A stretch of 14,066 nt of DNA from an uncultured Phycisphaeraceae bacterium (lineage in GTDB: Bacteria > Planctomycetota > Phycisphaerae > Phycisphaerales > Phycisphaeraceae): positions 1-14,066 of the forward strand of contig CAZHJL010000105.1 in the NCBI GenBank assembly GCA_964532795.1, given 5' to 3'. Under the pieces are notes generated by a model that saw only the letters and a list, made by a program, of their open reading frames with translations, did not search any database and was not told the DNA's origin. Below are positions 2,867 through 13,978 of the stretch, piece after piece. How positions within the stretch are numbered: the stretch's first letter is position 1; each line of letters starts with the position of its first letter. Both the position numbers and the translations under genes were made by a program.

Positions 2867-3070
2867 CCGATTGGGGAAAGACCGTACATTCTTGTTGCCG
2901 ACGGCCGGCTGTCAAATCAACTGGTCCGGTGGACAAGAGCGGGGCGCCATGAGGCGTTTCTGTCCCCGAGCCGCTGGCCGCACTTGACCGTCCGGGCGAT
3001 TCCGCTAATCTTTGGGGCTTCAAACCGGAAAAGGCATTCAACCGATACCGGTCTGTATAGACAACCCGTT

Positions 3071-3142
3071 TCCCCGATAGCTCAATGGTAGAGCGAGCGG
3101 CTGTTAACCGCTAGGTTGTAGGTTCGAGTCCTACTCGGGGAG
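3071..3142 (+). tRNA. tRNA-Asn (anticodon GUU), 72 nt, CCA not encoded.
   Basis: Reads TCCCCGA-TA-GCTC-AATGGTA-GAGC-G-AGCGG-CTGTTAA-CCGCT-AGGTT-GTAGG-TTCGAGT-CCTAC-TCGGGGA-G. All stems are Watson-Crick, the anticodon loop CTGTTAA gives GTT, and the T-loop is TTCGAGT. It closely resembles canonical bacterial tRNA-Asn. Confidence 0.9.
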
Positions 3143-3146
3143 CTTT

Positions 3147-3181
3147 CCCCAGTCACAAACAAGTGGCTGGGGCTTTCTTTT
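3147..3181 (+). terminator. Rho-independent terminator immediately 3' of tRNA-Asn.
   Basis: ccccagtcac / gtggctgggg form a 10-bp stem (one G-U pair) around the loop aaacaa. The hairpin is followed by cTTTCTTTT. Confidence 0.75.
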
Positions 3182-3413
3182 AGCTGCGGGCGGGTTGCGC
3201 AAGCCGCGTCGTCAACGTCAGTTCCGGCAACCCGTTACGCCGCTGCCGCTCTCGCCGATCCGCCCTGTCCAGTTAAACCCGCCGCCGCTTCGGCCGCACT
3301 TCGCCCGGCGCTCTCAGACTCTCGCCGCTCTCCCGTCCAACGGGTTAACAGACACGTTCGGGGTGGACCCTGCGTGGACCGAAACACCGTCGACCTCGCG
3401 TTCGCCGGACGTT

Positions 3414-3442
3414 TTGCCTAGTCGTGGGGTGTCCGGTAATCT
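3414..3442 (+). promoter_or_regulatory. Candidate sigma70-type promoter for the three-gene operon: TTGCCT, a 17-bp spacer, then TAATCT.
   Basis: The -35 TTGCCT is at 3414-3419 and the -10 TAATCT at 3437-3442 with a 17-bp spacer. It lies ~40 nt upstream of the ATG at 3481, which has its own SD (GGGGGA, 7-nt spacing). Confidence 0.4.
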
Positions 3443-3480
3443 TCACGGTTTACACTGGCGCTACTTTGGGGGATTTGCGC

Positions 3481-4590
3481 ATGGGTTTTTGGCACACGGG
3501 CTATGCCGAGTTCCACGAGGAAGTCGGCTTGGGCGACATTCAGGTCACCGACACCCCGGCACCTCGCTACTGCTGTGATCAGTGCGAAGCCGTTTTTGAT
3601 TCATTGGAGAAGCTTCGAACTCATCGTTTCGAGAAACATCCCATCGAACGCCCCTGCCTGCTAATTCGTGGTGTTGATGTGAACACCCAGCCCTTGGTAA
3701 TCAAGTCACCACTCTCGCCCTCCGACGTAACGGTGTTGTCGACAGAAGAGGTGGTTCTGAACGGGCAGTCACTCGCTTCGAACTCGTTAGGCGAGGCGCT
3801 CTCACGATGCCAATCAGGAACAGCGCGCATTGTTCTTTCGGGCGATTTGGCGCAGACGCCGAGAACCCTCCACTTCATGATCGCCACGCCCGACGACCTG
3901 GCTGGCGTAGAGCAGTCTTTCATGTCCACTGCAGCCGATGGACGGCTTGACCGGCGTGCCATCGAACAGTTCATCAGTGCGGCCAAGCGATTCCCGACCG
4001 CAGAGGCATACTGCGATGGCATCTGCGAGTATCTGTATGGCGTACTGGCCAAGGAGCGTTCCAGCGCCGTGGACGTACCGTACGAGCGATACCGAGACAA
4101 GCTCAATCGTTCGATGGAAGCCCTTCGTGATCTCCATCGTCCTTTAGCGAGACAGATTCTCGGCCTCATTGATTTCAACTTCAATCTGATGCAAAGCGCC
4201 AAGCATCGTGACCCAACCAGCCGCGTTGGCTTTGCGGCTGCACGTCTGCGGGCTTGGGGGAACGGCGACATTGCGCCCGATCCCCGCTCGACCACGCGAC
4301 GAACAGCGATCGATCGTGCATTGACCGACGCTGATACAGAAGCCATTGTCTCTTGGGCATGCCGGGGCCTGACAGATCTGGTTCAGTATGTCAACGATAT
4401 TGATGAGTTCTCGCGCAAACCGCTCGCCGAGTTCGACAAGAGCAAGTGCCATATCATGATGGTTACATTACGCCTTCACATGGGTGACATTGAGGGCGCG
4501 AGGCGGCACGCCAGAGAGCTCTACCACTTGGAGAACCCAGAGCTCTCAGGGCGTGGGCTCGTCAAGCTGATTGAAGAGCGAACGGCCTGA
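3481..4590 (+). CDS. Hypothetical protein (~369 aa) with an N-terminal C2H2-type zinc-finger motif. It is the first gene of the three-gene operon. An upstream in-frame GTG at 3424 would extend it to 388 aa.
   Basis: The long ORF has coding-like composition. ATG 3481 is preceded by GGGGGA at 7-nt spacing. The motif C-x2-C-x12-H-x4-H (CDQCEAVFDSLEKLRTHRFEKH) lies near the N-terminus. The rest is mostly helical with no recognisable catalytic motif. The stop TGA is at 4588-4590. Confidence 0.8.
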   Translation: MGFWHTGYAEFHEEVGLGDIQVTDTPAPRYCCDQCEAVFDSLEKLRTHRFEKHPIERPCLLIRGVDVNTQPLVIKSPLSPSDVTVLSTEEVVLNGQSLASNSLGEALSRCQSGTARIVLSGDLAQTPRTLHFMIATPDDLAGVEQSFMSTAADGRLDRRAIEQFISAAKRFPTAEAYCDGICEYLYGVLAKERSSAVDVPYERYRDKLNRSMEALRDLHRPLARQILGLIDFNFNLMQSAKHRDPTSRVGFAAARLRAWGNGDIAPDPRSTTRRTAIDRALTDADTEAIVSWACRGLTDLVQYVNDIDEFSRKPLAEFDKSKCHIMMVTLRLHMGDIEGARRHARELYHLENPELSGRGLVKLIEERTA

Positions 4591-4612
4591 CCACAAAGGA
4601 ACCATAACAACC

Positions 4613-5794
4613 ATGGGCGACGCGAACAGCATTTCAGGGCATCACGACGAACAGAGCCAACCCACAGATATAGACGGCTCGACGGAGTCTACGCCGAGCC
4701 GGCCCCCGGACGGTCCACCTCGTGACGATGCCTCTTCTGCAGGCGCGACTCCGAAGCGGAAGCCTTCCAATCCTAAAGGGCCGAAATACGAGGCGTTCGA
4801 GGACCTTCTGAGGCATGTCTACTCACGCAAGGGACAGCCAGTCACACTTGCGAAGAAAGATGCTGTGCATCTGGCCGACCAAGCAGTGCCTGACGAACTT
4901 CTGAATGACCTAGTGCCGGAACTGGCGCGGGCGGACCGTGTGCTGGCTGTACCAGCCCAGTTCCTCCTCGCAGGAGTACCGCACCGGCCGATGCTCAAGC
5001 TCTGGCGGCAGATCGAGCGGACCTACTTCATCATGCTGCAGCACCACCCGGGCTCAGCGAGACTGCTTGAGTTGCTGCATGAAGCGCGATCTGCCAACAA
5101 GCCCGCATGGTCCGCCCTCGACGTTGCCACGGATGACAGAGACGTCACGTCGCTACCAGCAGTTGACCCCGACAAGCCTTTGAAGAAGGCCGACCGCCTT
5201 AAGCTGCAACACAATCTGGTGTTCAATGTCGTCGTCTGGCTCAATCAATTCGCTTCGGTGAACACATCCACGATCGTGAGAAAACTCCATAACCAGCAGT
5301 GGTCACATGCGATCGCATCGGTGCGGAAGCCACTGGATCGCCTGAAGCTGTTGCACAAGCTCACAGACTATGCTGCGGCCGGCATGGCATCGTCCGCGTT
5401 CGCAGAGGAGGCACAGGCGCAAACCCAGGCTGCCGAAGATGCGGCACAACGCGAAATGGAAGCTGCCACCGCACTCGCTGAGTCGGAAGAACGCGTGCAG
5501 GCACTGGAGCAGAAAACCCAATTGCTTTCTTCAGACATCCAAGTCCTTCAGACGCAGTTGGAGCAAGCCAAGCAGAAGCACGAGGCCGACATGATTCATG
5601 CGGCAAACGATCTGGAACAGCTTCGTTCGCGCGTCGTTCGGGCGATCGAATCCGAAGTTGATCTTCTTCAGGAAGGGCTCGCGGCCCTAAGGCGCGACCC
5701 TCCGAAGACTCACGTCATGGATGATCACGCCGAACGTGCTATCAATGGCCTAAGGGCCGCAATCAACTCATTGAATGATGGGGGTAACTCATGA
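4613..5794 (+). CDS. Hypothetical protein (~393 aa). It has a Pro/Ser/Asp-rich disordered N-terminus, a helical middle region and a C-terminal coiled coil. It is the second gene of the operon. An alternative TTG start at 4571 overlaps gene 1.
   Basis: ATG 4613 has AAGGA ~12 nt upstream. The ORF runs to TGA 5792-5794, which overlaps the ATG of the next gene (ATGA). The C-terminal ~120 aa are heptad-like (…VQALEQKTQLLSSDIQVLQTQLEQAKQKHEADM…). No J-domain (HPD) or GrpE signature was seen. Confidence 0.75.
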   Translation: MGDANSISGHHDEQSQPTDIDGSTESTPSRPPDGPPRDDASSAGATPKRKPSNPKGPKYEAFEDLLRHVYSRKGQPVTLAKKDAVHLADQAVPDELLNDLVPELARADRVLAVPAQFLLAGVPHRPMLKLWRQIERTYFIMLQHHPGSARLLELLHEARSANKPAWSALDVATDDRDVTSLPAVDPDKPLKKADRLKLQHNLVFNVVVWLNQFASVNTSTIVRKLHNQQWSHAIASVRKPLDRLKLLHKLTDYAAAGMASSAFAEEAQAQTQAAEDAAQREMEAATALAESEERVQALEQKTQLLSSDIQVLQTQLEQAKQKHEADMIHAANDLEQLRSRVVRAIESEVDLLQEGLAALRRDPPKTHVMDDHAERAINGLRAAINSLNDGGNS

Positions 5795-7575
5795 CGACAG
5801 CTGGATTCGATTTCGGGACCACCAACAGCTTGGTGTCACATATCGTCGGGGATCGCGCCATCAGCCATTTCGATAGCCGTGGTCTCCCCATCTCCTCCGT
5901 CGTCTGCTACGAGGGGGGTAACGTCATCGTTGGTCGAGAGGCCAAAGACCGCCTCGAGGACGCGGGCCTTGGCGTTTACGGGAACATAGTGCGGTCACCC
6001 AAAATCCTAATGCAGGATGACTCGATCTACGTCGATGGCGTAGAACGCAGCACAATCGATGTCGTGGCAGATGTGATCAAGGGCGTCAAAGACCAGACGC
6101 TTGCGAGGCGGGCCGGAAGCATGGATACCCTCGACGCAGCCGTCGTCACCATCCCGATCACATTCGAGGGCGAGCGAAGAGCCAAGCTCCGCGAGGCCTT
6201 TGGGCGAGCAGGTATCCGAATCGTTCAGTATGTGCATGAACCACTTGCCGCACTGTACGGCTACTTCCGATCTGCGGGCGGCGTCGAGGAGAACCTTCGT
6301 CGGTACGATCGCCAGCATGTTTTGGTCTTCGACTGGGGTGGCGGAACACTGGACCTCACGCTCTGCCGCATCGAGAACGGCATGATCCTCCAGATTGCCA
6401 ACGATGGCAGCGATGAAGTCGGAGGTGATCGATTCGATGACGCGCTACGCAATGAAGTGGTTCGGCTTGGTCGTAAATCACAGGACGTAACAGAGGGAGC
6501 GTCGGTTCACCCAGACGCGAACGCCCGCCTCCTGCAGCGATGTGAACGCGCAAAGATTGATCTGTCCGAGCGAGATAGTGTCGAGGTGTATGTGGATCAC
6601 TTCTTCCGCGATGTGGCCAATGACGCTCTGGATTTCAAAGTGACTCGCCAGTTCCTTGAGGATGTGACCAAGCCCATCATCGATGCCGGCACCGATCGCA
6701 TCGACCGACTGCTCGAGGCTGCGATGTTGTCCCATCCGCAGATTGGCTTGTGCCTTGCTACTGGCGGCATGCTCCATATGCCTGCCATCCGCTCACGCTT
6801 GCATGAGCGATTCGGACCTCAGCGTGTCTGTGTTCCGGAGTCTGGCGCGGGCGCGATCTCCGTTGGAGCCGCATGGATCGCCCATGACAAGGCCGCTCTG
6901 CGGCTGGCCAAGACGGTCGAGCTTGCCCTTGCGCGGCAGTCATACCTGCCGCTTCTCAAAGCGGATACCCGGATGCCCATGCAAGGAGAAGTGCGCGGTG
7001 ACAACTTCGATCTGTATTGCGTCGATCCGCGTGATGGGTTTGCGAAACTACAGATTGTCTCGCCGAAGCGACCTGGAAGACACGTCCGTCCGAACGACAC
7101 CCGCAAGGTGCTGTCAACGATGACAGTCAATGTGGACAACACGGCCAAGCCGTTCCGCGAGCGCCTTCAGATGCGCGTCGAGGTGGATGACAACCTGATC
7201 CTTCACGCTACAGCCGTATCGCTCATGAACGGACACCATGACCAAGTTGAGATTCACGACCTCGAGTTCTGCATCTCGCTGGGAATGGATGGCACTGATC
7301 GGGCAAAGGACGATGACTCGGAGGCTGAGTCACAGGTGGACGGTGAGCCGCCACCACCGGGCGCAGTGGCACTTCGTCCGAACGTATCCAGCCATGTTGA
7401 GTCCTCGCTCGTGCCGGGCGAACTTTGGTACGAACACCAGCCCCAGGACTTCGATGTCCGGCTGCAGCCGCCGAGGATTCAGGTCGAGGAGCGACTGTAC
7501 TACGAGCCATGCAAGCTATGCGGGCGGCCGTCATACGACCCGCGCTGCAAATGCGTCTACGGAACGATGAAATAG
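5791..7575 (+). CDS. Atypical Hsp70-family (DnaK/HscC-like) ATPase, 594 aa. It has a complete actin-fold nucleotide-binding domain and a beta-sandwich substrate-binding-like domain. There is no helical lid. The C-terminus is a Cys-rich tail (CKLCGRPSYDPRCKC).
   Basis: Hsp70 signature motifs appear in order: FDFGTTNS (phosphate-1), VVTIPITF…EPLAALYGY (connect-1), VFDWGGGTLDLT (phosphate-2), GGDRFDDAL, ERAKIDLS, LATGGMLHMPAIR (adenosine). RVEVDDNLILHATAVS resembles the DnaK SBD beta8 strand. The SD GGGGG sits 6 nt upstream and the start overlaps the upstream stop. Confidence 0.85.
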   Translation: MTTAGFDFGTTNSLVSHIVGDRAISHFDSRGLPISSVVCYEGGNVIVGREAKDRLEDAGLGVYGNIVRSPKILMQDDSIYVDGVERSTIDVVADVIKGVKDQTLARRAGSMDTLDAAVVTIPITFEGERRAKLREAFGRAGIRIVQYVHEPLAALYGYFRSAGGVEENLRRYDRQHVLVFDWGGGTLDLTLCRIENGMILQIANDGSDEVGGDRFDDALRNEVVRLGRKSQDVTEGASVHPDANARLLQRCERAKIDLSERDSVEVYVDHFFRDVANDALDFKVTRQFLEDVTKPIIDAGTDRIDRLLEAAMLSHPQIGLCLATGGMLHMPAIRSRLHERFGPQRVCVPESGAGAISVGAAWIAHDKAALRLAKTVELALARQSYLPLLKADTRMPMQGEVRGDNFDLYCVDPRDGFAKLQIVSPKRPGRHVRPNDTRKVLSTMTVNVDNTAKPFRERLQMRVEVDDNLILHATAVSLMNGHHDQVEIHDLEFCISLGMDGTDRAKDDDSEAESQVDGEPPPPGAVALRPNVSSHVESSLVPGELWYEHQPQDFDVRLQPPRIQVEERLYYEPCKLCGRPSYDPRCKCVYGTMK

Positions 7576-7724
7576 GGCCACTCTGCCACACATGCCCGAG
7601 CCCGTCGCAGTCTCAGCGCCCTGCGACCGTGAGACTGATGCGGGCCGCAATGCGGCCAGTCGGGGCAAGGGGTTACGGCCGGGAGTCTCAAAGTCTCACG
7701 TTTTGGCGGTTCCGTCCCCCAGAC

Positions 7725-8108
7725 CTATGTCCGATCGATCACATCCACATCATCCATCAACTTGAAGCTGCCCTCACTGATATTCACTTGGACCAGTTGT
7801 CGCATCGGCTTGGGCATCGACAGGAACGGTATGAGCAGCTGCAACGCCGAGTCGTGAGCTTCGTCGTTGCTGCCCATCTGGTTGCTCAGTGACGCGAGGA
7901 CCACCAAGGTGTGGGGCGACAGCTTTGGTTCATCCGTTTCCCAAAGCACATCTATCAGAATCTGCATGGGTTCGAGGATGTTGTTGTCGAGGTCCGGAAC
8001 TCTCTTGCCCAGTTGCTCGCCGCCGGTGGTTATCCAGCAATGGATGTCCTCGACGGTGCACTCGTTCTCCAACGGCGGTGGACCTTCCGGTGCTCGGGTC
8101 TCGGTCAT
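7725..8108 (-). CDS. Hypothetical acidic protein, 127 aa. It is convergent with the operon and lies in a lower-GC patch.
   Basis: The ATG start (rc of 8106-8108) and TAG stop bound a protein-like composition (MTETRAPEGPPPLENECTVEDIHCW…). The overlapping plus-strand ORF is Ser/Arg-rich junk. There is no strong SD and no recognisable domain. Confidence 0.5.
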   Translation of the reverse strand: MTETRAPEGPPPLENECTVEDIHCWITTGGEQLGKRVPDLDNNILEPMQILIDVLWETDEPKLSPHTLVVLASLSNQMGSNDEAHDSALQLLIPFLSMPKPMRQLVQVNISEGSFKLMDDVDVIDRT

Positions 8109-8322
8109 GGTGGCATTCCGATCAGCAGACTTCGGCGGTGAGGGCCGCCTGGGTTGCCAGTTTCACAATCAGCGTCGGCTGATAACAGCCTACTGGTGGA
8201 CGGCGTCGGTCACAAGGCCCCTCGTAACTTTGGCATTGCTTGGATTCCACGCAAAATTTCGGCCCCTTCTGCAAAAAGACAAAGGTGAGGGACCACCTTG
8301 TTTAACTGCGGAAGGAGCCGCC

Positions 8323-8565
8323 GTGCCGCGACATAACCGACTTCGCCACGCCAGAATGACGCCAGCGGATCGCCGGCGGGAGATCGTCGCGATCCTGTCC
8401 CATGGTCTTTGCCGCATGCATGATCGCGGGAGTTCACGGGCTGAAGAAACTCTCCGCCCTGCGCGGGAACCCGCTTGCAATCCTGGCGAAAAGGCGGCTC
8501 AGTGTGTCTCGAACGCCGCCCCGCTCGTGGTTAGCGGGGCCGAGAACGACGAGGACGCACGATGA
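8323..8565 (+). CDS. Candidate small ORF (80 aa, GTG start) translationally coupled to the DUF2924 gene. It may be a regulator or excision cofactor.
   Basis: A strong SD GGAAGGAG (8310-8317) sits 5 nt before the GTG. The stop TGA 8563-8565 overlaps the ATG 8562 of the next gene. The sequence is basic/Arg-rich (…MTPADRRREIVAILSHGLCRMHDRG…). An internal ATG at 8356 is an alternative start. Confidence 0.35.
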   Translation: MPRHNRLRHARMTPADRRREIVAILSHGLCRMHDRGSSRAEETLRPAREPACNPGEKAAQCVSNAAPLVVSGAENDEDAR

Positions 8566-9083
8566 GCGACAACACGACCAGAACGGAACTGGCGGCGCTG
8601 CAGAAGATGACGCCGAAGCAGCTTCGGCAGCGATACCAGGAGCTGTACGGCGACGAGGCCCGGTCGGGCAATCGGCTATGGCTGCTGCGGCGCTGTGCCT
8701 GGCGGGTGCAGGCGCTGGCCGAGGGCGACATGACCGAACGGGCGAAGCGGGTACGCGAGCGGGCGCTGGCGATCGCCAACGACGCCGACGTCCGGGTGAT
8801 CCCGCCTCGCACGCCGGTGCCAGAAACAGAACTGCCACGTCGGGTGTCGGCCACCGACCTGAAACCCGATGATCGCCTGCCGATGGCGCACACCGTGCTG
8901 ACACGCGAGTTCAAGGGCAGACGATACGAGGTGACGGTTCTGCCCAATGGCTTCGAGTACGACGGCGAGATGTACCAGAGCCTCAGCGCCGTGGCCCACG
9001 CCATCACCGGCAGCCACTGGAACGGGTATCACTTCTTCAAGGGATCGCTGCTGAATGCGATCAAACTGCAGGGGGCCGAATGA
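8562..9083 (+). CDS. DUF2924-like protein (173 aa), of the kind commonly found immediately upstream of large serine recombinases.
   Basis: The N-terminal pattern LAALQKMTPKQLRQRYQELYGDEARSGNRLWLLRRCAWRVQALAEG and the C-terminal pattern FKGRRYEVTVLPNGFEYDGEMYQSLSAVAHAITGSHWNGYHFF match the remembered DUF2924 family consensus. SD GAGGA is 6 nt upstream. The stop overlaps the recombinase ATG (ATGA at 9080-9083). Confidence 0.7.
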   Translation: MSDNTTRTELAALQKMTPKQLRQRYQELYGDEARSGNRLWLLRRCAWRVQALAEGDMTERAKRVRERALAIANDADVRVIPPRTPVPETELPRRVSATDLKPDDRLPMAHTVLTREFKGRRYEVTVLPNGFEYDGEMYQSLSAVAHAITGSHWNGYHFFKGSLLNAIKLQGAE

Positions 9084-10654
9084 ACAAGTCGAACAGCAAA
9101 CAGGCTGCGGACACACCAACCGTGCGATGTGCCATCTACACCCGCAAGAGTACGGATGAGGGGTTGGAACTGGACTTCAACACGCTAGACGCCCAGCGTG
9201 ACGCGGGCGAGAACTACATCGCCAGCCAGAAGAGTCAGGGCTGGGTGTGCCTGGCCGACCGTTATGACGACGGCGGTTTCTCCGGCGGCACAGTGGATCG
9301 GCCCGCGTTCCAGCGGCTGATGGCCGACGTTGAGGCCGAACGCATCGACTGCATCGTCGTCTACAAGATCGACCGCCTGTCGCGCAGCCTGATGGACTTC
9401 GCCCGGATCATGGAGACGCTGGAACGGCACGGGGTGTCGCTGGTCAGCGTCACGCAGCAGTTCAACACGACCACCAGCATGGGCCGATTGACGCTCAACA
9501 TCCTGCTCAGCTTCGCCCAGTTCGAGCGGGAGATAATCTCCGAGCGCACGCGCGACAAGATCGCCTCAGCGCGGCGCAGGGGCAAATGGACCGGTGGCGC
9601 ACCGGTGCTCGGCTACGACCGCGTGCGGGACAACCGTGGCACGCGGCTGGTCGTCAACGAGGAAGAGGCGAAGCGCGTCCGCACCATCTTCGCCAGGTAC
9701 CTGGAACTGCAGTCCATCCTCCAAACCGTCCACTGGCTGGATGCCCGGGGCTGGCGGAACAAGCAGTACACCACGAGCAAGGGCGTGCCGCGCGGCGGGA
9801 AGGATTTCGACAAGTCCACGCTGCTGAAACTGCTGACCAACCGGCTTTACATCGGGAAGATCGTCCACAACGACCAGTGTTTCGACGGCGAACACGAGGC
9901 GATCGTGGACGAAGATGTGTTCGGCCGCGTGCAGGGCCAGCTCGCCCGCAACCGCAACAGCGGCGGCAAGTATCAGCGGAACAAGTACGGAGCGCTGCTC
10001 AAGGGGCTGGTGCGCTGCCGGCACTGCGGCGCTGGCATGAGCCATCACTACGCCTCGCGTGGCCAGCGCCGGTATCGCTACTACGTGTGCCAGACGGCGC
10101 AGAAGAAGGGCTGGTCATCGTGCCCGTACCCGTCGCTGCCCGCGGGCGAACTGGAACAGTTCGTGGTCGAGCGCATCAAGGAGATGACCGGCGACAGGAA
10201 CCTGCTGAGCGACGTGGTCAGCCGGGCCGGCGAACAGCTCAACCGCGAGACGGAAGACCTGGTGCAGCGCCGCAAGCTGCGCGAGAACCGGGCGCGACGC
10301 ATCAGCGAAGACATCAACGACCTGACCCGCAGCCTCGCCATGCACGCCACGCCTGGTGCAGCGGCCGAACTGGCCCGCCTGCAGGACGAACTGGTCGAGG
10401 TGGAGAAGGAGATCGGTGAACTGAACCGCCGGATCGTGGACCTGCAGCATCGAATGATCGACGAGGATGAGCTGACCGGGGCACTGGAGGCATTCGACCC
10501 GATGTGGGATCGGCTTCGACCGGATGAGCGGGCGCGTCTGATCCACCTGCTGGTGCAGTGCATCGAGTACGACGGGGCGAAAGACGAGATCGCCATCACC
10601 TACCACCCGGCGGGCCTGCAGGCCTTCGCCGAAATGGAGACATGCCATGCCTGA
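9080..10654 (+). CDS. Large serine recombinase (resolvase/invertase catalytic domain + recombinase domain + zinc ribbon + coiled coil), 524 aa.
   Basis: The N-terminal catalytic motif is AIYTRKSTDEG…LDAQRD. The resolvase core reads DCIVVYKIDRLSRSLMDFARIMETLERHGVSLVSV. The recombinase domain includes WTGGAPVLGYD. A zinc-ribbon Cys cluster (CRHCGAGMSHHY…YYVCQTAQKKGWSSC) and a C-terminal coiled coil follow. Confidence 0.92.
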   Translation: MNKSNSKQAADTPTVRCAIYTRKSTDEGLELDFNTLDAQRDAGENYIASQKSQGWVCLADRYDDGGFSGGTVDRPAFQRLMADVEAERIDCIVVYKIDRLSRSLMDFARIMETLERHGVSLVSVTQQFNTTTSMGRLTLNILLSFAQFEREIISERTRDKIASARRRGKWTGGAPVLGYDRVRDNRGTRLVVNEEEAKRVRTIFARYLELQSILQTVHWLDARGWRNKQYTTSKGVPRGGKDFDKSTLLKLLTNRLYIGKIVHNDQCFDGEHEAIVDEDVFGRVQGQLARNRNSGGKYQRNKYGALLKGLVRCRHCGAGMSHHYASRGQRRYRYYVCQTAQKKGWSSCPYPSLPAGELEQFVVERIKEMTGDRNLLSDVVSRAGEQLNRETEDLVQRRKLRENRARRISEDINDLTRSLAMHATPGAAAELARLQDELVEVEKEIGELNRRIVDLQHRMIDEDELTGALEAFDPMWDRLRPDERARLIHLLVQCIEYDGAKDEIAITYHPAGLQAFAEMETCHA

Positions 10655-11084
10655 ACCCCCGGAATCCCCCGCAACAGGAGTCACGCATCGCCATTCGCTC
10701 AAATTCATCCGCGAGCACAACGCCCGTCGGGCCGTGCAGCAGGTCGTCGAGGAAGACCCGGCTGAGATGGAACCCGGCCGGGTGCCGCGCGTCACGCGTC
10801 TGATGGCACTGGCGCTGCGGTTCGAACACCTGCTGCAGCGCGGGGCCGTGCGTGACCAGGCGGAACTGGCCGAACTCGGTCATGTGACCCGGGCGCGGGT
10901 GACGCAGATCATGAATCTGCTCTACCTCGCTCCCGACATCCAAGAAACCATCCTCCAACTACCTCGCATCACGTCGGGCAAAGCCCCGATCACCGAACGC
11001 GACCTGCGACCCATCGCCGCCGAGCCCGCCTGGTCGCAACAGCGGCGTCTGTGGGCCGACCTCGCGGCCCACCTGCCATCTTGA
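10647..11084 (+). CDS. Small DNA-binding protein (145 aa) with a ParB/KorB-like helix-turn-helix. Its start overlaps the recombinase stop.
   Basis: The segment DQAELAELGHVTRARVTQIMNLLYLAPDIQETILQL matches the ParB HTH plus the 'LLxLxPxxQExL' recognition-helix pattern. SD GGAGA is 6 nt upstream of ATG 10647, which overlaps the recombinase TGA (10652-10654). Confidence 0.7.
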   Translation: MPEPPESPATGVTHRHSLKFIREHNARRAVQQVVEEDPAEMEPGRVPRVTRLMALALRFEHLLQRGAVRDQAELAELGHVTRARVTQIMNLLYLAPDIQETILQLPRITSGKAPITERDLRPIAAEPAWSQQRRLWADLAAHLPS

Positions 11085-11287
11085 CAGCGACGTTTCTGTT
11101 CGGCGCATGTTCGGGCAGCCACATCCTCGGTCGCCACCTCGGCGCAAATCTATACCATATCATCCTTTAAGCATAACATCATTTTGGCGCGCCAGTTGCA
11201 GTACGCCCGCTTGGCCCGCGACGGATCGCGGACCGGGGTTTTGATCCATCAACGCCTTTGTTCTGGCCACTTCTGGCCGGGGAAAGG

Positions 11288-13096
11288 ATGCCCGAAGTGG
11301 CCACCAATTTCACGCCGAAACACATCTCCTCACCGCAGCTTTTGGAACACGTCACGCCGCAGGTGCTCCTCCGCTTCCTGAAGAAGTACAAGGAGTACTT
11401 CACCGCAGAAGGCGTAATGCCGACCTCGGCCGACGACATCGACTACGACCGCTTGTCGCTCGTACTGGCGTCGCCAAACGAGGTGATGCCCGCCTACCTC
11501 ATGGCGGACCTGTTCTACTGGGACGAGGTCGCCGAGATGGCCGATATCGAGGACCTCAACGAGATCGCCGCGCGGCAAGGGATCGAATTCGGCGACGAGG
11601 TGACCATCGAGGAGGCCGTGCTGCTCGTCCGGATGCACGCACCGGACGACCTCGAAGACCTTTACGACGTGTATCAGGCTCACGGCCTGCTCCGTAAGAA
11701 GAAGCGATTCCTGTCGTACTTTGCCAAGGTCGACGATCTGCCCGAATGGAAGAAGCCGACTCCCAAGAAAATGTCACAGTTCGCGGCTGAGATGGACGGC
11801 TGGTACGCTGACCAGAAGAAAGGCCGGGGAACGCGCGTCTCGGTGATCGAAAAGGATGATGCGGCCTGGTTCATTGTCCGCCACGGTGGGACGTTCAAGC
11901 GCGAGAATGCCGTGGAGAACGGCGAGCCCAAGCTCGTGTTCTACCGCCCCGAGGCGTATGACCTGCTGATCACCGTCATCACCACCGTGGTCGCGGTGCT
12001 CAAGGTGCTCGGTGCGGTATTGGCGTTCCTCGTCTCGCCCATCGGCCTGGTCATCGCGGCGGTGGCTGCACTAGCCGGTTATCTGATCTACGCCACCGAC
12101 ATCGGCGCGAAATCGCTGCAGTGGCTGGGCAGCCGGTTCCAGGTGCTTAAAGAGGATGCGCTGGCCGCCTACCAGGGCATCGCGGATGCTCTGGCTGCCG
12201 GCGACATAGCCCTGGCCGCGAAGGTGTTGTGGCTGACGCTGAAGATGGAGTGGACGCGCGGTGTGAATTTCCTCGAAAAGGTGTGGCTGAACTTCCGCAA
12301 CTTCTTCATTCGCATCGGCTACGACGCCTTCCACGGCCTGCTGGCGGTCGTCGAAATCGTCTGGCATGCGCTGGAGGTCGGCTGGATCGAGTCGGTGGCG
12401 GTCTTCAAAAAACTCTGGTCGAACCTGGTCGGCTTCTTCTCGCGGCTTTGGCAGAACATGGTCGCCATCGCGCGCAAGGCGTGGCAGTGGATCAAGGGTC
12501 TGTTCAGTGAATCCGCGCGCCAGAGCAGCGACAACGTCAATGCCCGCATCGACGCGGAGCGCGATGTCGCGATCAATCGGATCAATGACGCCGGGGAGCG
12601 GGACCGGGCGCGCGCCGAAGCCGAACGCCAGCGTCGCAGAGATCGGGCCGCATCCCAGCACGAGGCGACGCTGGCTGAGATCGAGCGGCAGAACCTCCAG
12701 AAACACAGCGAACTGGACGCCGAGTACGAACGGCGCATGGCCGAGAACGAAGAAGACCTCGAGCAGGCGCGGAAGGAATGGCAGGACGCCATCGACGAAG
12801 CGCGCAATAAGCGCGAGGCGCGTGAACGGGACGACTCCGGCCCCGAGGGACTGCAGAGTGCCGACGACGTGATCGACAAAGCCCGCGATGCGCTGGCCGG
12901 GCTGGGTGACATCGGCGACCTGGTCGAGCAGGAAGCGGCAAAGATCGGCGTGCGCGGCACGTTCAATGCCGCTGCCATTCAGGGCCTGGTCTCCGGCAGC
13001 GCTGCCGACCGCACCGCCAAGGCGACCGAGGAAACCGCCAAGAACACCAAGAAACTGGTCACCGCCGCCCAGACCGGCGGCCTGACCTTCGCGTAA
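11288..13096 (+). CDS. Large membrane-associated protein (~602-612 aa). It has a soluble N-domain, two TM helices, Trp-rich amphipathic repeats, a charged coiled coil and a Gly/Ala-rich C-terminus. It is tape-measure-protein-like (tentative). Alternative starts are TTG 11258 and GTG 11297.
   Basis: The ORF is long and codon-biased. The hydrophobic hairpin is VITTVVAVLKVLGAVLAFLVSPIGLVIAAVAALAGYLIY. Repeated ~25-aa W/F-rich units follow (KVWLNFRNFFIRIGYDAF…, VEIVWHALEVGWIESVAVFKKLW, SNLVGFFSRLWQNMVAIARKAWQWIKGLF). An E/R-rich coiled coil comes next. The product assignment is low-confidence. Confidence 0.75.
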   Translation: MPEVATNFTPKHISSPQLLEHVTPQVLLRFLKKYKEYFTAEGVMPTSADDIDYDRLSLVLASPNEVMPAYLMADLFYWDEVAEMADIEDLNEIAARQGIEFGDEVTIEEAVLLVRMHAPDDLEDLYDVYQAHGLLRKKKRFLSYFAKVDDLPEWKKPTPKKMSQFAAEMDGWYADQKKGRGTRVSVIEKDDAAWFIVRHGGTFKRENAVENGEPKLVFYRPEAYDLLITVITTVVAVLKVLGAVLAFLVSPIGLVIAAVAALAGYLIYATDIGAKSLQWLGSRFQVLKEDALAAYQGIADALAAGDIALAAKVLWLTLKMEWTRGVNFLEKVWLNFRNFFIRIGYDAFHGLLAVVEIVWHALEVGWIESVAVFKKLWSNLVGFFSRLWQNMVAIARKAWQWIKGLFSESARQSSDNVNARIDAERDVAINRINDAGERDRARAEAERQRRRDRAASQHEATLAEIERQNLQKHSELDAEYERRMAENEEDLEQARKEWQDAIDEARNKREARERDDSGPEGLQSADDVIDKARDALAGLGDIGDLVEQEAAKIGVRGTFNAAAIQGLVSGSAADRTAKATEETAKNTKKLVTAAQTGGLTFA

Positions 13097-13138: not shown

Positions 13139-13978
13139 ATGCCGATTACCTGCACTGAAAGCCCCGACTCCCGCCAGTACACCGAAGGCGAATCGGCGGA
13201 ACTGACGTTCACCATCCGAGGCACCGCCGACGAAGCAGCGGCGCTGTCGTCGCTCAACGCCACGGCCCCGTCCATCTTCAACGGACTGGTGCGGCAGCCG
13301 TCCACCGTCGAGCCGGTGCATATCGACGCGACCAATTCCGGGGGCTGCATCTGGACCGGCACCGCGCGATACGCGCCATTCGAGAACCAGGAGCCGGAGA
13401 CCGGCGACTCGGTCTTCAGCTTCGACACCGGTGGCGGCACGCAGCACATCACACAGAGCCGGTCCACCATCGCCAGTTATCCCGCCCCCGGCGTGCCCGC
13501 CGCACCCGACTTCAAGGGTGCGATCGGTGTCACGCACGACAGCGTCGAAGGCGTGGACATCACGATTCCCGTCTACACCTTCTCCGAGACGCACTACCTG
13601 CCCGGGTCCACGGTGACCAATGCGTACAAAGGCGCGCTGTTTCAACTGACCGGCAAGGTCAACACGGGGAGCTTCCGGGGGCTGGCGGCGGGCGAATGCC
13701 TGTTCCTCGGCGCATCGGGTTCACGCCGCGTTCCTGAAGCGGATCCTTCCGGGGGCGATTGGGAGATCACCTTCCGCTTCGCCGGCTCGCCGAACGTGAC
13801 CGGCCTGATGGTCGGCGACATCGGTCCCATCGACAAGAAGGGCTGGGAATACCTCTGGCTGCGCTATGAGGACCAGGAGGACGCGGCCGCCACGGCGCTG
13901 GTCAAGCGACCCGTCGCCGCCTACGTGGAGCAGGTCTACGAGGCGGGTGATTTCTCGACACTTGGGATCGGCACGTGA
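13139..13978 (+). CDS. Hypothetical beta-rich protein, 279 aa. It may be a structural or tail-like partner of the preceding gene.
   Basis: SD GGAGG is 5 nt upstream of the ATG. The composition is Gly/Thr/Ser-rich (TFTIRGTADEAAAL…GDWEITFRFAGSPNVTGLMVGD) with no catalytic motifs. It directly follows the 612-aa gene, 42 nt after its stop. Confidence 0.65.
   Translation: MPITCTESPDSRQYTEGESAELTFTIRGTADEAAALSSLNATAPSIFNGLVRQPSTVEPVHIDATNSGGCIWTGTARYAPFENQEPETGDSVFSFDTGGGTQHITQSRSTIASYPAPGVPAAPDFKGAIGVTHDSVEGVDITIPVYTFSETHYLPGSTVTNAYKGALFQLTGKVNTGSFRGLAAGECLFLGASGSRRVPEADPSGGDWEITFRFAGSPNVTGLMVGDIGPIDKKGWEYLWLRYEDQEDAAATALVKRPVAAYVEQVYEAGDFSTLGIGT

Follow-up and report, generated by a model that had tools for sequence, protein, structure and literature searches.

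A predicted sigma-54-type promoter region and a probable deletion chimera in a decaying prophage of an uncultured Phycisphaeraceae bacterium

An AT-rich patch in the genome of an uncultured Phycisphaeraceae bacterium is, in the explanation that we favour, part of a sigma-54-type promoter region belonging to a phage early gene. We analyzed the patch within a stretch of 14,066 nucleotides (contig CAZHJL010000105.1 of GenBank assembly GCA_964532795.1), termed the window. It lies in the intergenic region between the gene for a small protein of 145 amino acids (aa), which closes a module built around a large serine recombinase (LSR), and an open reading frame (ORF) of 612 aa composed of the 5' part of a gene that we call Y and the 3' part of a tape-measure gene. 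Attachment (att) sites of LSRs are commonly located near the recombinase gene, and an earlier note on this DNA had proposed that positions 11141-11193 are such a site or the boundary of a mobile element. We suggest instead that this segment would be the regulatory region of Y, the first early-operon gene of a temperate Planctomycetota (Phycisphaerae) phage, and that an internal prophage deletion of ~30 kb separately produced the chimeric ORF. To this combined explanation we assign a probability of about 0.72.

A sigma-54-type core motif upstream of gene Y

The AT-rich stretch reads as the earlier note had quoted it. Its core (11146-11185, + strand) has a GC content of 25%, compared with 61.8% for the window, and is the lowest-GC 40-mer of the window (z = -4.9), the next lowest having 37.5%; the + strand contains nine C and a single G. 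At the right-hand edge of the patch lies a sigma-54-type core, TGGCGC-gccag-TTGCA (TGGCGCGCCAGTTGCA, 11185..11200, + strand), in which 11186-11187 form the -24 GG and 11198-11199 the -12 GC. Written as TGGCGCG-N4-TTGCA, it departs from the consensus TGGCACG-N4-TTGCW by one change and has the exact spacing. What had been described as a right-hand GC clamp of the patch is the -24 element of this predicted core.

In a scan of 4.1 Mb of fetched sequence, the strict motif TGGC[AG]C-N5-[TA]TGC[ATG] gave a background rate of 0.006 hits per kb. Upstream of Y lay 12 of the 35 strict hits, all at a distance of 97-112 nt except that of locus L001 (393 nt; L numbers are our handles for fetched loci). Strict cores occupy this position in the window, L007, L122, L148, L149, L151 and L172, and one-base variants are found at the same place in L008, L152, L238 and L261. 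Taken together, a core stands 97-112 nt before the Y start in 13 of 14 distinct relatives checked, often within surrounding sequence that cannot be aligned. In LSR loci where no close Y is present (roughly 60), no strict hit follows the 145-aa gene. Conversely, L151 and L152 retain core and leader behind genes for a tyrosine integrase, an M78 peptidase and an extracytoplasmic function (ECF) sigma factor, with no LSR, and L238 retains the core with AbiEi/AbiEii lying between the LSR module and the promoter. The motif travels with Y and not with the recombinase. The expectation that relatives without the recombinase would keep the patch holds for core and leader, which L151 and L152 have at the same distance, and fails for the AT-rich 40-mer, which they have not kept.

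Upstream of the patch, we observed a tandem box, TGTTCGGCGCA TGTTCGGGCAG (11097..11118, + strand; about -114 to -93 from the predicted start), which is a candidate activator or operator site. The box is conserved in L149, L259/L260, L262/L263 and L007, occurs as a variant in L261, and takes the form TGTTCGGCGCA TGTTYGGGCAG across the closest relatives with an intact Y. The AT-rich patch, at about -65 to -26, forms the spacer between box and core and is a candidate site of bending or of binding by an architectural protein. In sigma-54 promoters, a spacer that is bendable or bound by an architectural protein is usual at about this position, where it aids looping of the activator. By analogy, the AT-rich 40-mer would separate the box, as the presumed activator site, from a core recognized by the sigma-54 holoenzyme, and an upstream activator would reach the closed complex by looping. 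The transcript, with its predicted 5' end near 11211, would contain a leader with two conserved hairpins and a Shine-Dalgarno sequence before the start of Y.

This layout invites a textbook comparison with enhancer-dependent sigma-54 promoters such as Pu of the TOL plasmid, nifH and glnHp2. Shared features are the -24/-12 core, a conserved repeat box about 70-90 nt upstream of the -24 element, an AT-rich stretch between box and core, and a fixed distance from the gene. The region differs from these promoters in its setting, before the first early gene of a temperate phage in Planctomycetota, and in being known from sequence alone; moreover, its box is a tandem (direct) repeat, whereas the usual activator sites are inverted repeats. 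A further difference is that the patch matches the consensus of integration host factor (IHF), WATCAANNNNTTR, only in part, the best match, TATCATCCTTTAA, agreeing at 7 of 9 specified positions (read by eye). Members of the Planctomycetota, including Phycisphaerae, encode rpoN, and sigma-54 regulons have been predicted in them (PMC2754498, PMC12316311).

The imperfect IHF match is one of several observations that weigh against a sigma-54 promoter with an architectural spacer. Of 14 relatives, 13 have a lower GC content in the 40 nt before the core than in the locus as a whole, and extreme AT-richness of this stretch is confined to the window, L149 and L262. The AT-rich 40-mer itself is conserved in L149 only; in the other relatives the stretch ranges from 23% to 55% GC, with L007 at 80%. 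Extreme AT-richness is thus not a requirement of the promoter. The sequence TGGCGCGCCA, which overlaps the core, forms a perfect palindrome of 10 bp in the window as well as in L149, L151 and L262, making an operator that overlaps the core possible. We found no gene for an enhancer-binding protein or AAA+ activator among the scanned neighboring genes of the phage region, and Pfam gave no match for the first two early genes, Y and a 409-aa gene. The start site and the dependence on sigma-54 are predictions.

These observations bear on a different regulatory reading, in which the patch would serve as a promoter of sigma-70 type or as the operator of a repressor, for instance the 145-aa protein, with TGGCGCGCCA as the palindromic operator. 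AT-rich DNA in front of genes is typical of sigma-70 promoters and UP elements, the TCGGCGCA direct repeats and the conserved box resemble protein-binding sites, and the small helix-turn-helix (HTH)-like gene ends just upstream. A scan of 10900-11400 for sigma-70-like promoters (-35/-10 hexamers, 16-18 nt spacer) returned, however, no site, and the palindrome is lost in L122, L148, L172, L261 and L238, all of which retain GG-N10-GC with TTGC. L151 and L152, in turn, have no 145-aa gene yet keep the core. We consider regulation of this other kind unlikely, if still worth keeping in mind. A search of the same interval for an intrinsic terminator of the upstream gene (GC-rich hairpin plus T run) was also negative.

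Homology continues across the AT-rich patch

The att reading starts from real features: the patch is about 40 bp long, has an unusual composition and lies, as the earlier note had stated, 57 bp after the last gene of the recombinase module, the 145-aa gene, which ends at 11084. In length and in proximity to an LSR gene it is also similar to the attP and attB sites of phiC31, Bxb1 and TP901-1. Unlike these, it shows no imperfect inverted repeat around a central dinucleotide. The GGCGC copies at 11141 and 11186, which had been taken for inverted arms, are direct. The left-hand GGCGC falls within TCGGCGCA, which occurs as a direct repeat (11100, 11139), and the sole inverted partner is a 5-bp GCGCC at 11189, within the palindrome GGCGCGCC. 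With 26-nt half-sites centered in the patch, the best dyad symmetry was 13/26, compared with a background best-of-25 of 12.3 +/- 1.3; 39% of control positions in the window equal this score. A repeat search found no inverted repeat bracketing the patch.

Alignments with relatives revealed no homology boundary either. The window aligns with L149 continuously from 10775 to 11971, and L149 carries a nearly identical patch (two substitutions, one indel) in front of a Y gene that is intact (398 aa) and followed by a conserved early region. Identity between the two is 93-95% over patch and promoter and 90-95% over the leader, compared with 62-88% in flanking coding DNA. For the closest relatives with an intact Y (L259/L260, L261, L262/L263), the alignment spans the whole intergenic region. 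L259-L263 share the order of tandem box, variable AT-rich stretch, invariant TGGC...TTGCA, hairpin, and second hairpin with Shine-Dalgarno sequence, the patch varying in sequence though remaining AT-rich in L259, L261 and L262. Past the patch, homology with relatives extends through a complete Y and a further 8-10 kb or more of early phage genes that are conserved.

The patch is furthermore not conserved together with the recombinase. It is absent after the LSR genes of the closest LSR relatives (L001-L005), and in L238 cargo parts the module from the promoter. The constant neighbor of the recombinase module is a tRNA gene, which consistently adjoins it on the opposite side. Given the background-level dyad symmetry, the collinear relatives and the independence from the recombinase, we regard it as very improbable that the patch is attL, attR or attP of the adjacent LSR, or the edge of a mobile unit that starts at the tRNA-Asn gene. 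The earlier note had reasoned that, if the patch were attL or attR, that unit would end about here; it does not end here. Support goes to the fallback of that note, a promoter or operator region of the downstream gene, which fits the conserved core and leader at a fixed distance.

A structured leader precedes gene Y

Between core and gene, two hairpins were identified on the + strand. The first, GGCCCGCGA-cgga-TCGCGGACC (11213..11234), was detected by repeat search and RNAalifold and begins about +3 to +5 from the predicted start. Leaders of distant relatives (L148, L151, L152, L007, L172) were folded one by one, since MAFFT misaligns their hairpin; their stem sequences differ completely and the (A)CGGA loop is kept. 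The second hairpin, TCTGGCC...GGCCGGG (11262..11281), stands directly before the Shine-Dalgarno sequence AAAGGA (11283-11288). RNAalifold predicts seven pairs, which are kept in 7/7 sequences, one of them via a single one-sided change from C-G to U-G. The leader hairpins of Y match no Rfam family. The coding region begins at a conserved GTG (11297), with ATG at 11288 and TTG at 11258 as alternative in-frame starts.

We additionally noticed that CATCCTTT (11161-11168), within the patch, is perfectly complementary to AAAGGATG (11283-11290), which covers the Shine-Dalgarno sequence and the ATG of Y. About 0.3 such pairs are expected by chance, and this one is common to the window and L149 only. 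Pairing of the two segments could occlude translation in read-through transcripts.

The 612-aa ORF as a probable deletion chimera

The only real break in the region lies about 800 bp to the right of the patch, inside the 612-aa ORF. The two halves of this ORF match different sets of viral contigs, one with residues 1-228 and the other with residues 223-602. The Y part (11297..11971, + strand), truncated here after residues about 1-225 from the conserved GTG, is 62-85% identical to the N-terminal 228 aa of intact proteins of 391-394 aa (more than 20 contigs, 36 database proteins). Y of relatives (about 394 aa) reads ...RPEAYDLLI|YYHKQGELAIYN at this point. The C-terminal 374 aa (11972..13096, + strand) share 43-72% identity with the C-terminal end of tail tape-measure proteins of about 670 aa. 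These proteins match PHROG tape-measure families (E = 2.5e-45) and have the sequence ...LGxLI|TVITTV at the corresponding point. At the junction lies the 7-bp microhomology GCTGATC (11965..11971, + strand), which is all that the two parents, ..CTGCTGATC|TACTAC.. for Y and ..GCGCTGATC|ACGGTC.. for the tape-measure gene, have in common there. In blastn searches, every alignment with intact-Y loci ends at 11970-11971, and alignments with intact tape-measure loci (L078, L082) start at 11965 and 11972. The earlier note was right that there is a discontinuity near the recombinase module and that the tape-measure part has another origin; it had placed the discontinuity at the patch, when it actually falls at 11965-11971.

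The gene order of related phages indicates how the two parts may have come together. Y is followed there by the 409-aa gene, AAA_24, DUF669 and a helicase gene, and the tape-measure gene lies about 19-22 kb beyond the helicase on the same strand (L161 + L112, L208 + L082, L201 + L098). The first of these pairs shares a contig and has both genes on the + strand, with about 30.0 kb from one site to the other; the other two pairs link helicase and tape-measure gene in the same order. Missing from the window are the last 167 codons of Y, the 409-aa gene, AAA_24, DUF669, the helicase gene and about the first 300 codons of the tape-measure gene. The 612-aa ORF is most likely an in-frame chimera that arose from an internal prophage deletion of about 30 kb at the 7-bp microhomology. 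Such a deletion would have joined codon about 228 of Y to the C-terminal 374 tape-measure codons, in frame by chance, and the promoter would now drive a chimeric and probably non-functional ORF in a decaying prophage. In the AlphaFold model of Y (pLDDT 83), the break falls inside a beta-strand and not at a domain border.

The proposed event resembles the internal deletions at short microhomologies known from cryptic prophages. Genes on the same strand ~30 kb apart are joined at seven bases, the replication, packaging and head genes expected in between are missing, and an integration module and tail genes remain. Different from these cases are the long in-frame chimeric ORF behind a strong-looking promoter and the existence of a second contig in which Y is broken at the same codon.

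Four observations count against the deletion as we reconstruct it. No contig was recovered that carries a close Y (above 60%) and this tape-measure family on one record. The link between the two genes rests on a distant Y (27%, L161) and on transitivity via the helicase. A tape-measure motif scan of viral contigs did not return the contigs of L151 and L152. Finally, a random deletion does not predict truncation at the same codon in a second locus.

A mundane explanation would be that the junction is a chimera of assembly or library preparation. Exact look-ups of the LSR, 279-aa and DUF2924 proteins of the window found no independent copy in a large assembly collection, the junction contains GATC (read by eye), the site used in proximity-ligation libraries, and chimeric Y fragments are known in metagenome assemblies. 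Yet seven shared bases are fewer than a de Bruijn or overlap assembler needs to make a join, the partners come from the same phage type in an order and orientation that fit a simple deletion, and the fusion is in frame within an ORF open for 602 codons. We judge an artifact of this kind to be unlikely.

The other fetched loci have an intact Y or an intact tape-measure gene, except for Y in L238 and the tape-measure gene in L090/L267. L090 (9548-11041) carries a tape-measure gene without the N-terminal 300 codons, fused to a different upstream gene (MIGFKITKLFF...) at a point about 26 codons from the breakpoint of the window. Deletions seem to arise readily in the hydrophobic, GC-rich part of the tape-measure gene. 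As to the other parent, the best PDB matches of the Y model are the kinetochore proteins CENP-N and CENP-L (Foldseek E = 5e-5 to 6e-4, TM 0.24-0.48). The fold of CENP-N and CENP-L and that of RdgC, a bacterial ring protein that binds DNA, are related (PMC9235857), and on the basis of the model Y may be a DNA-binding early protein.

A second truncation of Y at the same codon

The second broken copy is a 225-aa Y homologue in L238 (P0016), 71% identical, which ends exactly at ...YDLLI followed by TAA. After the TAA come 28 nt of unrelated AT-rich DNA and then the end of the contig (L238:5218-5281; compare window 11940-11975). The 28-nt tail gave no informative match in any fetched locus.

This coincidence raises the possibility that the junction at 11965-11971 is site-specific, with Y holding a secondary recombination site or insertion hot spot for the LSR or another element. 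L238/P0016 was cut independently within 2-3 bp of this place, with different cargo and a different partner, and the junction of the window lies 0.9 kb from the recombinase module. An extended version of this view takes the codon-228 site (11960-11975) as a recurrent target of the adjacent LSR or another element, where splitting of Y would switch off the early operon and the window and L238 would be two independent products; we hold this version, too, to be improbable.

The evidence from other copies of Y points away from a specific site. Y was intact in each of 21 pattern-search hits from viral and metagenome contigs and in all the other full-length database proteins, and integrated copies beside host genes and tRNA-Asn keep an intact Y (L149). 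Synonymous positions around the break vary freely, and no recurrent mosaic breakpoint was found at residue 225 among 30 intact proteins. Neither parental junction site has dyad symmetry above background, and from its sequence the junction does not look like an LSR site. The database also holds other odd or chimeric Y fragments (P0037-P0040), from which we roughly estimate the chance of a coincidence at about 2-6%. L238, moreover, ends 28 nt past the break, less than an assembler k-mer, and may be an artefactual tip. A site-specific junction accordingly seems improbable to us. The narrower idea of an attP inside Y was rejected, as integrated copies beside host genes keep Y intact and the site-specificity tests were negative.

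The recombinase module and its likely attachment site

The recombinase module itself is well represented among relatives. It comprises, all on the + strand, a DUF2924 gene (8562..9083; Pfam PF11149, E = 2.5e-38), the LSR gene (9080..10654; 524 aa; Pfam Resolvase, Recombinase and Zn_ribbon_recom) and the 145-aa gene (10647..11084; PHROG 14161, E = 5e-17), whose product has a weak Pfam HTH_ParB match below the cut-off (E = 0.043). LSR relatives were found in 77 loci from species-representative genomes, mostly of Planctomycetota and chiefly of Phycisphaerae, the best being L001 with 85% identity. The trio is constant in these relatives, with DUF2924 directly 5' of the LSR gene and the 145-aa gene after it. 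In several loci, a small conserved ORF with the motif ...TPxxRRREIVAILxxGL... is located just 5' of DUF2924 (window 7591-7719 and 7867-8565; L149:6021-6416; L084:9881-10132); window 7591-7719 is 86% identical to its counterpart in L149. This ORF may be a fourth member of the module.

Downstream of tRNA-Asn, the DUF2924-LSR module is found at a distance of 0.7-7 kb in the window, L001, L148, L149, L012, L014, L084 and L099; in L017 and L066 it lies downstream of tRNA-Met. The orientation of tRNA and module is identical in all of these, at least 10 loci. Because the module adjoins tRNA-Asn or tRNA-Met, the att site of this recombinase is probably located there, and tRNA-Asn likely anchors, on the host side, the prophage or island to which the module belongs. 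The gap between tRNA and module holds variable cargo: an Hsp70-like cassette in the window, a mer operon in L259, and unannotated small genes in L149, one of them with a weak DUF5677 match. The AbiEi/AbiEii genes of L238 and the mer operon of L259 occupy slots comparable to that of the window cassette.

Upstream of DUF2924 we found an approximately fivefold enrichment of the motif CC[AT]GTTAA, which CTCTC often precedes; where a tRNA adjoins, the motif stands about 40-130 bp after it (window 3269-3276). Copies of AACCCGTT/AACGGGTT are present at 3062, 3230 and 3341. Window 3144-3360, which we compared with the corresponding regions of L001, L012, L013, L066, L084, L099 and L149, is a candidate for the real att site, with the motif serving only as a lead.

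In a group of sister phages (L082, L084, L086, L099, L100, L104, L111), the DUF2924-LSR-145aa module (about 52% identity) is located at the opposite end of the prophage, in convergent orientation to the tail genes; it again adjoins tRNA-Asn where sequence is available (L084, L099). A module that sits at the other end yet beside tRNA-Asn suggests that the integration module is a swappable cassette. We also considered LSR-mediated inversion for L082- and L084-type phages, in which the module lies inverted about 3 kb after the tail genes. This was ruled out: these phages have no Y between tail genes and module, and the module stands by tRNA-Asn, simply at the other prophage end.

Other genes of the window

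The first gene in the window encodes a Band7/SPFH protein, followed by tRNA-Lys and tRNA-Asn(GTT) (3071..3143 for the latter, + strand; ARAGORN and Rfam). In an Rfam scan of the window, these two tRNAs alone reached the gathering threshold. Between tRNA-Asn and the recombinase module lies a cargo cassette of three genes (3424-7575) with a lower GC content of about 54-60%. Its products are a 388-aa protein with a C2H2-like finger, a 407-aa coiled-coil-like protein and, encoded by the last gene, a 594-aa Hsp70-like protein. PADLOC gave no convincing match for the three cassette genes or for Y; the cassette may be an uncharacterised defence or accessory system. Downstream of the chimeric ORF lies a 279-aa tail-module gene (13139..13978, + strand); nearly all related viral loci whose sequence reaches that far have it in the same place, behind the tape-measure gene. 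A blastn search of 10600-11400 against plasmid and phage collections gave no match.

Implications

For annotation, these results remove a false att-site call and mark the 612-aa gene as a deletion chimera rather than a gene family, while the likely att site of this recombinase family moves to the tRNA-Asn/tRNA-Met side. The patch itself belongs to an ordinary regulatory element in a decaying prophage, of moderate interest for its predicted sigma-54 early operon and the recurrently broken first gene of that operon. Text searches of the literature turned up no described phage early operon of this sigma-54 kind, which is a weak negative. If the prediction holds, it would be a modest and useful addition: in a family of temperate Planctomycetota phages, expression of the early operon would begin at an enhancer-dependent sigma-54 promoter followed by a leader of conserved structure, and lytic entry would depend on an AAA+ activator of the host, or of the phage.

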